The position numbers and the translations under genes were made by a program. Below are positions 10,241 through 52,749 of a stretch of DNA of 64,000 bases, in pieces. Position 1 is the stretch's first letter; every line of letters starts with the position of its first letter. The DNA comes from an uncultured Clostridia bacterium (lineage in GTDB: Bacteria; Bacillota; Clostridia; Christensenellales; UBA1242): positions 24,657 through 88,656 of the forward strand of contig CALWKF010000004.1 of the NCBI GenBank assembly GCA_944381215.1. Direction: 5' to 3'. The notes under the pieces were generated by a model. The model was not told the DNA's origin. It did not search any database and saw nothing but the letters and a program-made list of their open reading frames with translations.

Positions 10241-10278
10241 AAAAAACAACCCCATTTTATACAAATGGGGTTGTTTTT
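10241..10278. terminator. Bidirectional terminator between the 8704 gene and glpK
   Basis: A 12-bp stem AACAACCCCATT/AATGGGGTTGTT is flanked by an A-run and a T-run. Confidence 0.8.
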
Positions 10279-10415
10279 ATATATTGAAAGGAGAGAATGA
10301 ATTTATTGTTAACTCGGCTCTTTTTTTGCAATTTTTTATTAATTTTTGTTATTTTTCACATTTTTGTGCGTTTTTTTATTATTTTTTCGTGATTTTTTAT
10401 TATTTTTTGTGTTTT

Positions 10416-11885
10416 TTATAGTTTTTCGATGAGTTTGAGCCATTCTTGGTAGTTGTTTTCGCGCTTGATGTCGTGGGCGGTGGGGCGGTAAATTTTTGCG
10501 CTTTCGTAGAGGTTGTTTAGGTCGCGCATAGACTTAAACGCGCCGAAGCACAGCCCCGCCATATAGCACGCGCCGAGGCTAGTCGACTCGGTCACTTTGG
10601 ACACTGCCACAGGGAAGTGCATTATGTCGCTCTGGAATTGCATAAGTAGACTATTCTTGGTCATCCCGCCATCGACTCGCATTTGCTTTTCGCTCACGGG
10701 GAAACTTTCTTGCATACAGTCAAACACCGCACGAGTGTTGTAGGTAATGCCTCGCAACACCGCCCGCACAATGTGTGCCGAAGTTGACGCGAGCGTTATG
10801 CCCGCAAACTGTGCCCGAGCGTTACTCTTCCAAAAAGGCGCACCGAGGCCCGAAAGTGCTGGGATGAAGAACACTCCACCAGTGTCGGGGACACTGCCTG
10901 CTAACGTCTCGCTCTCGCCAGGGGAGTCGATGAGCTTAAACTGGTCTTGTAGCCAGTTGATACACGAGCCCGCCGAGTACATATTGCCCTCCAAGGCATA
11001 CGCAACACCCTCTTTTGTCCTCCAAGCCACGGTCGTGATTAGCTGGTCGTGTAGAATGGGGGTGCTACCTATGTTTGCCAGCATAAAGGCGCCCGTGCCA
11101 AAAGTGGTCTTGAAGTCGCCCTTGTTTATGCAGTTTTGCCCCAAAAGCGAGGCCTGCTGGTCGCCAATAAGCCCGCCGATTGATAACTTCTTGCCCGCAA
11201 TTACGCAATCGCCGATATACTCATCACAATTTACAATATTAGGGAGCGCATTCATAGGTACGCCGAAAAACTCGCACAGTTCGGGGTCCCAGTTTTGCGA
11301 TTTGAGGTTGTAGAGCAAGGTCCTGCTCGCGTTCGAATGGTCGGTGACAAATTTTGCGCCGTTTGTGAGGCAGAATATTAGGTAACTGTCGAGCGTGCCG
11401 AGGCAAAGCCTGCCATTTTCACTTGCTTTTTTCACGGCCTTTGAATTGTTCAACAGCCACGACATCTTGGTCGCGCTAAAATAAGGGTCGATGCGCAGGC
11501 CCGTGCGCTTGTGAATCATCGAGGCGGTGCGTTTATCTTTCTGCAACTCCTCGCAGTACTCAAAGGTGCGCCGACACTGCCACACGATCGCGCGCTCGTA
11601 GGGCTTGCCCGTTTCGCGGTCCCATGCAACGGTCGTCTCGCGCTGGTTCGTAATACCTACGCCGTAGATTTCCTCGGCATCTAGGTCCGCAATCGTACGC
11701 TTCAAGCACTCGACAATCGCCGCGACAATCTCGACTGCATCTTGCTCCACCCAGCCAGGGTGCGGGTAAAATTGGCTGATTTTCTTTTGAAAAATGTTGA
11801 ACTGCTCGTGCGCCACTACGTTATATGCAAGGGTGCGTACCGAAGTCGTGCCCATGTCTATGGCAATTATATATTTTTTGTCCAT
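10416..11885 (-). CDS. glpK: Glycerol kinase
   Basis: The 489-aa product aligns by eye along its length to FGGY-family glycerol kinases (IIAIDMGTTSVR..., GITNQRETTVAWD, WLLNN, GDQQASLLGQ, TFGTGAFM, GGMTKN). Confidence 0.95.
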   Translation of the reverse strand: MDKKYIIAIDMGTTSVRTLAYNVVAHEQFNIFQKKISQFYPHPGWVEQDAVEIVAAIVECLKRTIADLDAEEIYGVGITNQRETTVAWDRETGKPYERAIVWQCRRTFEYCEELQKDKRTASMIHKRTGLRIDPYFSATKMSWLLNNSKAVKKASENGRLCLGTLDSYLIFCLTNGAKFVTDHSNASRTLLYNLKSQNWDPELCEFFGVPMNALPNIVNCDEYIGDCVIAGKKLSIGGLIGDQQASLLGQNCINKGDFKTTFGTGAFMLANIGSTPILHDQLITTVAWRTKEGVAYALEGNMYSAGSCINWLQDQFKLIDSPGESETLAGSVPDTGGVFFIPALSGLGAPFWKSNARAQFAGITLASTSAHIVRAVLRGITYNTRAVFDCMQESFPVSEKQMRVDGGMTKNSLLMQFQSDIMHFPVAVSKVTESTSLGACYMAGLCFGAFKSMRDLNNLYESAKIYRPTAHDIKRENNYQEWLKLIEKL

Positions 11886-12025: not shown

Positions 12026-13432
12026 ATGGAGGAATTTCAAGTAGCAATTATCGGTGGCGGAATTGTGGGGGCTTGCGTCTTTTCAGAACTTACGAGAAAG
12101 GGCGTCGATTGCGTACTCTTGGAGGCGGGGAACGACGTCTCAAACGGCAGTACAAAGGCGAACAGCGGTATCGTGCACGCGGGTTATGACCCGATTCCAA
12201 ACACGTTAAAAGCACGCTTTAACATCCGCGGAAACCAACTTTATCCAGCGATGTGCGCGAGACTCAAAATCGACATTTTGCAGTGCGGGACCTTGGTGGT
12301 AACCGACCGCGAGAATTTAAGCGGGCTCGAGGAACTCTTCAACCGCGGGCTCGAGAATGGGGTCCAAGGCATGCGTATTATCGAGCGCGAGGAGTTGCAC
12401 GAAATGGAGCCGAACCTTGCCGAAACAATAGAGTACGGCCTTTTTGCGCCGACGGGGGCAGTGATTTCGCCGTACTTAACTTGCATCGCGCTTTGTGAAG
12501 AGGGCGTGGTGAACGGTGGCAAGGTTTACACCAATTTTCGCGTGGACAAAATCGCAAAGTCTGGCGATATTTACGAGATTTTTGCGCAAGATAAAAGTGT
12601 GCGGGCAAAATTTATTGTAAACTGCGCTGGGGTCGGCGCGAATGAAATTAACGCGCTAGTTGGCGCACCCGTTGCCGAAATGAAGTATGTAAAGGGCGAG
12701 TACTTGCTACTGGATAAGTCGCAAAACGGCTTTGTCCACCGCCCTATTTTCCCGCTACCTACAAAGGCTGGTAAAGGTATCCTAGCACTACCCACACTGC
12801 ACGGGAACATAATGCTGGGGCCCACCGCGATTCCATGCGAGGCGAACGACACGACCGTCGATGCAGAAGGTATTAGACAAATCAAGGAAAAGGTCGAACT
12901 CTCCGTAAAAAGGCCAAACTACAAGAAAGTTATCAAACTTTTCGCTGGTGTGCGCGTGATTTCGGGCGATGACTTTATCGTCGAACAGATGCCAGACACC
13001 CATTACTACTACACCTTGGGCATTTGCTCTCCAGGGCTAACTGCTGCGCCCGCGATTGCGGAATATTTGGTAAATTTAATGCTCGAGGATGGGCTCGAGT
13101 GCAAGCCTCACACCTTTGTGGCTAGAAAACCCTACGTATGCACCGAGACTATGAGCAAAAAAGCATTAAAAGAGTTGATAAAATCTAACCCCGCATACGG
13201 AAAAATCGTGTGCAGGTGCGAGCGCATCACTGAGGGCGAAATAATAGATGCCATCAACTCGCCACTGAATCCCACCGATGTCGACGCAATCAAGCGTCGC
13301 GTTCGGCCTACAATGGGGCGGTGTCAAGGTGGCTTCTGCTTGCCCAAAGTTATCAAAATTATTTCGGAGCAGTGTGGCATCCCAGTTGAAAAAGTTTGTC
13401 TAAACGACAAGGGTAGCGAAATACTAAAATAA
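12026..13432 (+). CDS. FAD-dependent glycerol-3-phosphate dehydrogenase/oxidase-like oxidoreductase with a C-terminal BFD-like [2Fe-2S] domain
   Basis: N-terminal dinucleotide fold VAIIGGGIVGACV. C-terminal Cys motif CRCERITEGEI...MGRCQGGFC. It is divergent from glpK. Confidence 0.8.
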   Translation: MEEFQVAIIGGGIVGACVFSELTRKGVDCVLLEAGNDVSNGSTKANSGIVHAGYDPIPNTLKARFNIRGNQLYPAMCARLKIDILQCGTLVVTDRENLSGLEELFNRGLENGVQGMRIIEREELHEMEPNLAETIEYGLFAPTGAVISPYLTCIALCEEGVVNGGKVYTNFRVDKIAKSGDIYEIFAQDKSVRAKFIVNCAGVGANEINALVGAPVAEMKYVKGEYLLLDKSQNGFVHRPIFPLPTKAGKGILALPTLHGNIMLGPTAIPCEANDTTVDAEGIRQIKEKVELSVKRPNYKKVIKLFAGVRVISGDDFIVEQMPDTHYYYTLGICSPGLTAAPAIAEYLVNLMLEDGLECKPHTFVARKPYVCTETMSKKALKELIKSNPAYGKIVCRCERITEGEIIDAINSPLNPTDVDAIKRRVRPTMGRCQGGFCLPKVIKIISEQCGIPVEKVCLNDKGSEILK

Positions 13433-13440
13433 CCACCACT

Positions 13441-13830
13441 TTATAAAATATTGCGGTTAAATTTTAAAATAAATCGAAAAATTATAAAAAATCGCAAAAA
13501 ATCATAAAAAATAGCAAAAAAACGGTAAAAAACTCAAAAAATACGAAAAATAATAAAAAAATCATCGAAAAGTAAAAGCCTAAAAAATGCCCAAAAATTA
13601 TAAAATAATAGAATTTTTTATAAAAAATGCTCGATTTTTAGAGGAAAAATTTTAAGAATAGCAAAATAAAATTAAAAAAACAAAAATTTATCGAATAACA
13701 ACTAAAAATTATCGAAAAAACATTAAAAACGGCGAAAAATTGCGAAAAAACAGCAAAAATATTAAAAAAAGTGGTAAAAATAGAAAAAATGAGAGCGAAA
13801 ATCGCTCTCTCCAAACAGGACAAAATGTCC
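13441..13830. repeat. Phased A-tract array (about 10-bp period)
   Basis: From about 13471 to 13600, and again about 13711 to 13800, each consecutive 10-nt block ends in A4-A7 (aaatcgaaaa attataaaaa atcgcaaaaa atcataaaaa atagcaaaaa ...). Confidence 0.9.
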
Positions 13831-13931
13831 AGAACACCTAATTTCTTAGGATAAATATATTATACCACAATTTCACAAATTGGCAATAGTTTAGATTTAA
13901 ATTACAATAAATTAACAAAATAGGAGAAAAT

Positions 13932-15179
13932 ATGTACAAGACCGATGTAGTTATCATTGGTGGCGGACCTTGTGGGCTCGCTGCGGCGACAGGGGTGAGC
14001 AAATCTGGGGCGAAGGCCTTAATTCTCGAGCGCGACGAGAGACTAGGGGGTATTCTCACTCAGTGCATTCACAATGGCTTTGGCTTGCACCTATTTAACG
14101 AGGAGTTGACGGGCCCCGAGTACGCGGAACGTTGGAAAGCGCGCGTGGCTGGGGACAAAAATATTTCGGTACTACTTAACACCTTTTGCTATTCGATTGA
14201 GAGGCGAGGTGCGGACTTTTTGGTAACCGCTAGCAATGCCGAGGGTCTTGTCGAGGTCGAGGCAAAAGCGGTCGTAATGGCGTTAGGGTGTCGCGAAAAA
14301 CCTGCGGGCGCAATCTCGCTTGGTGGCACCCGTCCCGCTGGTATTTTTTCAGCGGGTTGCGCGCAAAAACTAATTAATGTCGAGGGCAGACGCGTTGGCA
14401 ACAATGTGGTGATTTTGGGCTCGGGCGATATCGGGCTGATTATGGCGCGTAGGCTCGTGTGCGAGGGCGCAAAGGTCTTGGGCGTGTACGAAATTATGTC
14501 CAATAGTGGCGGGCTAGCTAGGAACATCACGCAGTGTTTAAAGGACTTTAACATCCCTCTATATTTGAGCACCACCGTTACTCGCGTGGCGGGGAAAAAG
14601 AGGCTAGAAGGGGTGTATGTCGCGCCCGTAAACGAAAAATTACAGCCGATTCTCGAACTAGAAAAGTTTATTCCGTGCGATACTCTGCTACTGTCTGTTG
14701 GACTACTTCCCGAGGTCGAGATTGCGGGCGGGTTGGGGCTCGAATTTAACCCAGTAACTAACTCCTACACGGTCGACGAATACTACTCGACCTCTATACC
14801 AGGCCTATTTTGTGCGGGGAATGTCTTGCACGTAAATGACCTTGTGGACAACGTGTCTGCTGAAGGCGAACTTGCTGGCGAGTTTGCGGGGAAATTTGCA
14901 AAGTCGGGTCTCGATATGAGCAACAAAATCGAGATTACTCACGACGAGCACATCAAGTACACCGCGCCAAAATACGTGTACAATAATCACACGGGTACTT
15001 TAAAGGTGTCTTTCCGCGTCGATAAAAACTACCGCCGTGTAATCATCCGCGCGATGTCGGGCGGAGCCGAGATTTCAAAGCGTCCAGCCCCCGCAATCAC
15101 CGCTGGCGAGATGCAGACCCTAATCATAGACAAGTCTAAAATTATAAACGGCCTCCACCTCGAAATCGATGTTTTATAG
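13932..15179 (+). CDS. Pyridine nucleotide-disulfide (FAD/NAD(P)-binding) oxidoreductase, partner of the G3P dehydrogenase-like protein
   Basis: RBS TAGGAG precedes the ATG. Two Rossmann motifs are present (VVIIGGGPCGLAAA and VVILGSGDIGL). Confidence 0.75.
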   Translation: MYKTDVVIIGGGPCGLAAATGVSKSGAKALILERDERLGGILTQCIHNGFGLHLFNEELTGPEYAERWKARVAGDKNISVLLNTFCYSIERRGADFLVTASNAEGLVEVEAKAVVMALGCREKPAGAISLGGTRPAGIFSAGCAQKLINVEGRRVGNNVVILGSGDIGLIMARRLVCEGAKVLGVYEIMSNSGGLARNITQCLKDFNIPLYLSTTVTRVAGKKRLEGVYVAPVNEKLQPILELEKFIPCDTLLLSVGLLPEVEIAGGLGLEFNPVTNSYTVDEYYSTSIPGLFCAGNVLHVNDLVDNVSAEGELAGEFAGKFAKSGLDMSNKIEITHDEHIKYTAPKYVYNNHTGTLKVSFRVDKNYRRVIIRAMSGGAEISKRPAPAITAGEMQTLIIDKSKIINGLHLEIDVL

Positions 15180-15237
15180 CGAAAAATCGTGAAAAAATGC
15201 GAAATTTTGCGTATTTTTTCGATATATTTAAATTACT

Positions 15238-15570
15238 TGCGGCTGGCGCGAGGACATACTTTTCTAATTGAAGTAATCACTTGCGCGCCAGACTTCCCGC
15301 AAGCGGAAAGGCATCCTGAGTGTCGACCCGCGTTAGCCCTTAGACAAAGGATCTCATCCCTGCCGCTTTTTTCTATTATTATTTACGGTTTGTTGGACAA
15401 AATTTTTTAGAGGATGGAATGAGATTCTTCGTCTCAGGCTCTGTAAGCAGGGCTCAGAATGACCAAGTGATTAGTATGGTTTGCTTACCGTGTGTGCGAC
15501 TTTGCACCGAGGGGCGGGCTCAGAATGACTAATATAAACCACTTTGGGCTAGCGTGCGTAGATTCTGTCT
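15238..15570. repeat. Mosaic intergenic repeat locus R2
   Basis: Composite copy (reverse orientation) at 15241-15366. A-module at 15414-15463. GTGTGCGACTTTGCACCGAGGGGCGGGCTCAGAATGAC at 15492-15529. Confidence 0.9.
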
Positions 15571-52057: not shown

Positions 52058-52579
52058 TTATTTTTCTTCTTCGATGTAGTAGTCCCAGGGATTTAGGATG
52101 CGGATGTTGAGGCCTTGGTCCTTGGCGTAGAGAAGGGTGTTGCGGGTGCCACTGGGGGAGCCATTGTAGCACGCAATGACAGTGCTCGAATTGTCCACCA
52201 TAAATTTATTGCGCAAGTCGTAAACTTTCGGGTTATACTCTTTCGCTACCACGATGCATTCGTCGCACTGCTCTAAAATTTTGTGATAACGTTCTTGTTG
52301 ACGGGGGAGCCACCTTGATTCCTGATTAGGACAAGGCACGACCGCCACGACCTTGATGTCATGGTCTTTGCGTAAATCTAGGAGCATCTCGACACCTATC
52401 ATATCAAAGCCCTCCGCCATGCCGATGTAGTAGATGTTGTTGCCCTCGCGTATCGTGTCCTCTAAAACTTGGCGCAACTCGACCTTAAACCGCCTACAAC
52501 TCTCGCGACTTTCGTCATATCCCCAAGGCAGAGCCTTTGGCCGATGCCCCGTTAAACAAACCGCCTTTTCTCTTTCCAT
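52058..52579 (-). CDS. SLOG-fold DUF1273 protein (YpsA-like)
   Basis: VCLTGHRPKALPWGY...GMAEGFDMIG...VVPCPNQESRW...RNKFMVDNSSTVIACY matches the DUF1273 pattern. Confidence 0.7.
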   Translation of the reverse strand: MEREKAVCLTGHRPKALPWGYDESRESCRRFKVELRQVLEDTIREGNNIYYIGMAEGFDMIGVEMLLDLRKDHDIKVVAVVPCPNQESRWLPRQQERYHKILEQCDECIVVAKEYNPKVYDLRNKFMVDNSSTVIACYNGSPSGTRNTLLYAKDQGLNIRILNPWDYYIEEEK

Positions 52580-52749
52580 AAAACCTCGCTTTTTAGCTCT
52601 TTTTTCAAATTAATTAAATTATATCGAAAATAGAATTAAAAGCAACAAAATTTAGCAAAAAAATTGCGCTAATTTAATAAAATTAAGGCAAAATTTGTCG
52701 AAAAATAAATAAAAAACACGGCCTAAGCAAGGGTTAGGTCGTGATAACT

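Follow-up and report, generated by a model that had tools for sequence, protein, structure and literature searches.

The 499-bp spacer between two co-directional oxidoreductase genes in the 64,000-bp stretch of clostridial DNA analysed here (the window) contains about 29 A-tracts in helical phase. The 390 bases from 13441 to 13830 are real non-coding DNA which, by the curvature model used, is strongly bent. The genome, labelled G000, has 1.22 Mb in 22 contigs, and the window is part of its contig C4. Arrays of this class number several hundred across the genus, and the present one is the most extreme of them; it is therefore not a locus-specific device. The phenomenon itself is known, and this locus is a striking case of it rather than a new kind of element.

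The phasing of the A-tracts at about 10 bp, which had been noticed by the sequence-only reading, was checked by Fourier-type analysis and was confirmed. The whole spacer contains 33 runs of A4–A7 and only four T-runs, and the same number of A-runs (33) was counted in 13441–13830. Inside the two phased blocks the A-runs are spaced 9–11.5 bp from centre to centre. The power spectrum of AA dinucleotides in 13441–13830 had its maximum at 9.9 bp, with maxima at 9.7 bp in 13471–13600 and 10.1 bp in 13711–13800. The z values were about 9.4–10.6 for the whole stretch and both blocks, and the observed power was reached by none of 1000 dinucleotide-preserving shuffles. When the tracts and the spacers were kept and their order was permuted, the signal was reached in 62 of 1000 trials, which indicates that it comes mostly from the uniform length of the units. 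Tandem Repeats Finder reported periods of 10, 21 and 30 bp with 69–74% matches. The number of tracts had been given as about a dozen, which is too low, as the phased tracts form chains of 13, 6 and 10. The left block begins 13 bp past the stop codon of the upstream gene and carries the 13-tract chain, which is the longest of the genome, followed by the 6-tract chain. The middle of the spacer (13601–13710) is weakly periodic, with a z of 1.8 and a power that 62 of 1000 shuffles reach. The array had also been thought to occupy the entire spacer of about 500 bp; it extends from 13445 to 13801, that is, over about 360 of the 499 bp, and the final 130 bp (the 3′ quarter) consist of hairpins and promoters.

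The spacer was correctly described as having no credible ORF. The minus, T-rich strand has only low-complexity ORFs rich in Phe, Ile and Leu, which are by-products of the T-runs, and a coding spacer was rejected. The search with Rfam covariance models gave one tRNA as the only match at gathering score in the window and nothing in or near the spacer, and at E < 10 nothing meaningful was found in 12500–15000. A mobile or repeated element was also rejected, as BLAST of the array against the genome returned only short low-complexity matches to other arrays. An ENA metagenome scaffold and a Logan contig, from two more assemblies, have the identical spacer, but both possibly derive from the sample that gave the window. 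All copies in public assemblies were identical to the spacer of the window, and the scan of metagenomes turned up no relatives that were closer. The features of the locus are collected in the table.

Table. Features of the phased A-tract locus and its surroundings (positions are those of the window)
Feature	Position	Strand	Remarks
Second long array, 11 tracts	10321..10426	-	T on plus strand = A in glpK sense; from phased-chain scan
Glycerol kinase (glpK)	10416-11885		Divergent from the 12026-13432 gene
FAD-dependent oxidoreductase with C-terminal BFD-like [2Fe-2S] domain	12026..13432	+	Pfam DAO and Fer2_BFD
Left phased A-tract block	13445..13605	+	About 16 runs of A4–A7, period about 9.7–10 bp
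AT-rich middle, mixed A- and T-runs	13606..13703	.	Weak phasing; includes a T6-A-T-A6-type palindrome
Right phased A-tract block	13704..13801	+	10–11 runs, period 10.1 bp; most curved part by model
Candidate small RNA, about 70 nt, three hairpins	13783..13852	-	Antisense to the operon; ends inferred from promoter and terminator
Terminator-like hairpin, 8 pairs, 5 of them G-C	13791..13809	-	Followed by T-runs, the complement of the right block
Sigma-70-type promoter TTGCCA-16-TATAAT with TG (extended -10)	13859..13886	-	11/12 consensus matches
Predicted promoter TTGGCA-17-TACAAT of the downstream gene	13880..13908	+	10/12 matches
Pyridine nucleotide-disulfide-type FAD/NAD(P) oxidoreductase	13932..15179	+	Pfam Pyr_redox_2 and related families

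The curvature of the array was predicted with a dinucleotide wedge model, and the figures given here are output of this model. In the controls, a synthetic A6N4 repeat was curved and a period-15 repeat was straight. The ratio of end-to-end distance to contour length of the modelled 390-bp fragment was 0.22 against 0.81 for shuffled sequences, with a summed bending of about 640 degrees and a writhe of -0.63. The 135-bp window at 13688–13822, which covers the right block, gave a ratio of 0.48 and falls in the top 0.05% of genome windows; 26 non-overlapping 135-bp windows of the genome were predicted to be at least as curved. Thus, the earlier proposal of strongly curved DNA is supported by the phasing beyond chance and by the outcome of the wedge model.

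The occurrence of similar arrays was then surveyed over the genome, with statistics that rest on crude gene calls (longest ORF, greedy). Phased chains of four or more tracts number 311 in the genome, and those of this locus rank first and fourth in length. When the tracts were kept and shuffled within each gap, a mean of 72 intergenic chains of at least four tracts was obtained against 195 observed, and a mean of 4.2 chains of at least six tracts against 46. The distances between tracts of A5 or longer peaked at 10–11, 20–21, 31, 41, 51–52 and 61–62 bp and were depleted to 0.3x at 14–16 bp. The best intergenic period was 10.5 bp, held over six turns; the period of the locus (9.7–10.1 bp) lies below it. 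About 30–40% of the gaps of at least 150 bp bear an array. The bases between the tracts of the arrays show no motif apart from a preference for T (73%) directly after the tract. Of 378 pairs of neighbouring units, 3 were identical, where chance alone would give 1.5, which does not indicate recent unit duplication. With this figure and the 69–74% matches of Tandem Repeats Finder, recent slippage of the kind that builds a VNTR was rejected. The distances of the arrays to start and stop codons were broad genome-wide with no preferred value, and the density of arrays was 0.76/kb in convergent and 0.38/kb in divergent gaps. In co-directional gaps, 46 arrays were A-sense and 20 T-sense (p = 0.002), a bias that could fit the avoidance of U-runs in transcripts or, alternatively, a replication strand bias. 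The arrays are spread unevenly over the contigs (chi-square p = 0.0015); C4 has 27 arrays of at least five tracts against 13.6 expected from its intergenic DNA, and C1, C2, C7 and C9 are array-depleted.

A second long array lies close to the locus, 3′ of glpK. A bidirectional terminator at 10241–10278, consisting of an A-run, a 10-bp G+C stem and a T-run, is common to glpK and a convergent gene of 496 aa. The 106-bp array is located between the glpK stop codon and this terminator, i.e., within the 3′ untranslated region of glpK. The array 3′ of glpK is absent in three related genomes (G001, G003 and G008), and G016 has T-sense runs there; these absences, together with the 0-bp junction of the oxidoreductase pair in the array-rich G008 and G009, indicate that array positions turn over quickly.

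The phasing was compared among relatives as the number of A5-tract patterns at period 10 against those at period 15, with the genus represented by 17 genomes. Four-tract patterns numbered 49 at period 10 and none at period 15 in this genome, and about 313 and 3, respectively, in the whole genus, with 0 to 59 per genome. Three-tract patterns numbered 1244 against 65 in the genus, 136 against 56 in the other genera of the family and 64 against 31 in the other families of the order. The phasing is about 19-fold in the genus against about 2-fold in the other genera and families of the order. Thus, a weak two-fold phasing that is common in bacteria has been amplified about ten-fold in the genus.

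The two genes flanking the array, which belong to the glycerol pathway, had been expected to form a normally compact pair, and the comparison of 19 related loci and distant taxa agrees with it. The best NCBIfam matches of the upstream gene are type 2 glycerol-3-phosphate oxidase and GlpA, both below the cut-off, and the predicted product is glycerol-3-phosphate oxidase/dehydrogenase-like. The downstream gene has a ribosome-binding site AGGAG at 13923–13927. The pair is co-directional in the 19 related loci and is usually 0–66 bp apart in most of the genus, family and order and in distant taxa, where the genes are adjacent as well with mostly about 13–66 bp between them. The spacer is 0–12 bp in basal lineages of the genus and in other genera and families, and 27–47 bp in some members of a derived clade, where 3–5 A-tracts are already present. 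It measures 174, 298 and 499 bp in the nested clade (G001,(G005,G000)), with branch support of 99/99 and 100/99, and 157 bp in G016, which is an independent enlargement. G005 has two A-tract arrays at the same place, and G001 has G+C-rich hairpins instead. The array-rich genomes G008 and G009 still have 0 bp at this junction. These results show a recent stepwise growth of the spacer from an operon junction of 0–12 bp to 499 bp.

The surroundings of the pair gave some further observations. A DUF1667-type third gene after the pair was considered and rejected, as only a 73-aa ORF without a family match is present, which is uncalled in the source record. This ORF overlaps a G+C-rich structured non-coding stretch at 15225–15385 (plus strand) and is probably not a gene. 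The stretch is located between the oxidoreductase gene and the gene of a PnuC-type nicotinamide mononucleotide transporter. It folds into two long helices and a terminator-like stem followed by a T-run, with a minimum free energy of -47 kcal/mol against -36 kcal/mol for shuffles (z -2.7). It has no Rfam match and is a candidate for an unclassified leader or riboswitch of pnuC. The divergent spacer between glpA and glpK measures 141 bp here and 877 bp in G003 (L078, G003:C1:80100-85100, about 1549–2426), where it seems to hold an additional small gene on the minus strand, and a tRNA-like sequence is present 3′ of glpK in G003.

The 3′ quarter of the spacer carries two predicted promoters of opposite direction, and the -35 hexamer of the plus-strand promoter overlaps that of the minus-strand one. 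The TACAAT hexamer and the Shine-Dalgarno region of the downstream gene are kept in the closest species, G005. On the minus strand, the terminator-like hairpin has the sequence and fold of an intrinsic (Rho-independent) terminator, with the promoter 50 nt upstream on the same strand. The candidate RNA of 13783–13852 has a predicted fold of -22.3 kcal/mol (z -3.6). The promoter and the first two hairpins recur with 78% identity at G000:C10:26004-26081, in a paralogue that has its own promoter and a different terminator hairpin. In this two-copy unit (13783–13892, minus strand, and the C10 copy), the hairpin CCTAAGAAATTAGG is identical in both copies, the second hairpin and the minus-strand promoter are conserved, and the terminator hairpins are non-homologous. 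The C10 copy lies within an AT-rich island of ORFs without a Pfam family. Neither the unit nor its core motif was found in the 16 other genomes of the genus. These features suggest a putative small antisense RNA of about 70 nt that exists in two copies. On the plus strand, no terminator was predicted between the two genes. Together with the A-sense of the array, this leaves read-through from the upstream gene still possible.

The explanation we favour, and to which we give somewhat better than an even chance, is that the array is generic architectural curved DNA, the largest of a genus-wide population of arrays in the AT-rich intergenic DNA of gut Clostridia with genomes of about 1 Mb, in which the shape is kept. 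Because neighbouring units are as different from each other as random ones and the off-helical periods are depleted, we infer that the A-tract and its phase are maintained and not the sequence. In the model, the bent DNA would form a left-handed coil whose bending sums to about 1.8 turns. Such a coil may favour the wrapping or docking of nucleoid proteins, for example the two HU paralogues, and/or of RNA polymerase. The array would also keep adjacent transcription units apart, both physically and in topology. Here it may have uncoupled two formerly coupled genes, the downstream one now having its own predicted promoter, and the A-runs on the sense strand would let transcription pass. Since the arrays are not conserved in position and the junction remains at 0 bp in G008 and G009, any selection is not locus-specific; we favour weak, non-local selection on shape, and the arrays could be tolerated rather than needed.

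The genome was also searched for nucleoid proteins. A tandem pair of HU-family genes lies at G000:C6:52036-52305 and 52431-52700 (minus strand); the canonical member scores 106 bits and the divergent one 52 bits. Searches of the genome for histone-fold and H-NS proteins gave none. Of the 16 other genomes of the genus, 15 have the tandem pair, which also occurs in some further genera of the family; the second copy is fast-evolving within the genus (46–75 bits). No correlation was seen between the number of arrays and how far the second HU has diverged (rho -0.31, p 0.25). A stronger form of the architectural explanation, in which the arrays would be selected wrapping sites for a lineage-specific nucleoid protein, with the second HU as a candidate, and would act as nucleosome-like left-handed coils that insulate topologically or transcriptionally, is considered quite improbable.

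The main rival of the architectural explanation is neutral filler, in which an AT-biased mutation and the occasional duplication of 10–11-bp units in a reduced genome under weak selection would produce arrays without a function and the spacer would have lengthened for lack of any check. The array positions are unconserved between species and keep no particular distance from start or stop codons, arrays occur in all types of intergenic regions including convergent ones, and the size of this array is species-specific, all of which fit this rival. A perfect 10-bp triple repeat at G007:C2:413738 shows that unit slippage is possible. However, drift or duplication of units of arbitrary length would not give the observed depletion of off-helical spacings at 14–16 bp, nor three-tract patterns of 4 at period 15 against 151 at period 10, and the persistence of A-tracts and phase among units no more alike than random ones suggests maintenance of the shape. 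We regard neutral filler as unlikely on balance, albeit a serious contender. A locus-specific upstream activator, in which the curved DNA, like the phased A-tracts or UP-type elements of Gram-positive promoters, would wrap RNA polymerase and boost the new promoter of the downstream oxidoreductase gene, appears improbable. Upstream curved DNA is a classical activator, a promoter is predicted downstream of the array, and in G005 the array, as read from the sequence, abuts a -35 hexamer with 4/6 matches located 17 bp before the conserved TACAAT. In the window, however, a hairpin and promoter module of about 90 bp lies between the end of the array (13801) and the -35 hexamer (from 13880), so the position of a UP element or curved activator, with the array directly upstream of -35, was rejected here and is seen in G005 only. 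The absence of a preferred distance to start or stop codons and the density in convergent gaps, which is at least as high as in divergent ones, together with this offset argue against a promoter- or terminator-specific role.

Two further readings concern the transcript and the binding of specific proteins. The A-rich inter-cistronic RNA of 360 nt might itself be functional, for example by offering a ribonuclease or an RNA-binding protein an unstructured place to land, so that the two cistrons would differ in stability. The A-sense bias in co-directional gaps, the uninterrupted plus strand between the genes and the location of the glpK array ahead of its terminator are in line with such a role. 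A period of 10.5 bp is, however, meaningless for single-stranded RNA, about 30% of the arrays are T-sense, many lie beyond terminators or between convergent genes, and a sequence motif is lacking; the sense bias is equally explained by U-run avoidance or replication strand bias, and we hold an RNA-level element to be very improbable. An array of iterons or operators, or a replication origin, in which each 10-bp unit would be a specific binding site, can hardly be credited. Iterons, too, are typically spaced regularly on one face of the helix, but the units here have no conserved core and occur as hundreds of dispersed arrays with differing spacers, and neither a DnaA-box cluster, a nearby replication gene nor a skew switch was found here.

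Among known systems, phased A-tracts and UP elements occur upstream of bacterial promoters, for example in Bacillus phage and at rRNA promoters. The array resembles UP elements in being AT-rich, in having its A-tracts on one strand and in lying upstream of a predicted sigma-70-type promoter, next to the -35 hexamer in G005. It differs from them in extending to -450, and arrays of the same class occur at gene ends and between convergent genes. The likeness to minisatellites or VNTRs, which arise by slipped-strand mispairing, lies in the head-to-tail short units of fixed length, the intergenic location and the length that differs between related species, but the units here have only the A-run in common. 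That A-tracts recur with the helical period in bacterial genomes has been known for decades. Its concentration in intergenic DNA and its difference between genomes are documented, and its role has been called unclear, with nucleoid compaction and transcription being proposed (PMC516772, PMC3940949, PMC3431218). The locus shares with the phased A-tract DNA described before (Hosid, Trifonov and Bolshoy 2004, PMC516772; Mrazek and co-workers, PMC3431218, PMC3372288, PMC3940949) the 10–11-bp spacing of AA/TT, the enrichment in non-coding DNA and the variation from genome to genome. In contrast to the documented cases, the signal at this locus is unusually long, with its tracts running over 360 bp, the excess in the genus stands well above that of its relatives, and the growth can be traced inside an operon junction. 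The period of 9.9 bp also differs from that of E. coli, for which about 11 bp has been reported there.

The genus offers an unusually clean natural series, in which the number of arrays varies among sister genomes from almost none to hundreds and a single operon junction can be followed along a supported tree with spacers of 0, 12, 47, 174, 298 and 499 bp. For annotation, the long gene-free AT-rich gaps of these genomes are structured DNA and not missed genes. If the arrays were indeed selected wrapping sites for a nucleoid protein, the insertion and growth of such coils would be a general route of operon splitting in these reduced genomes.
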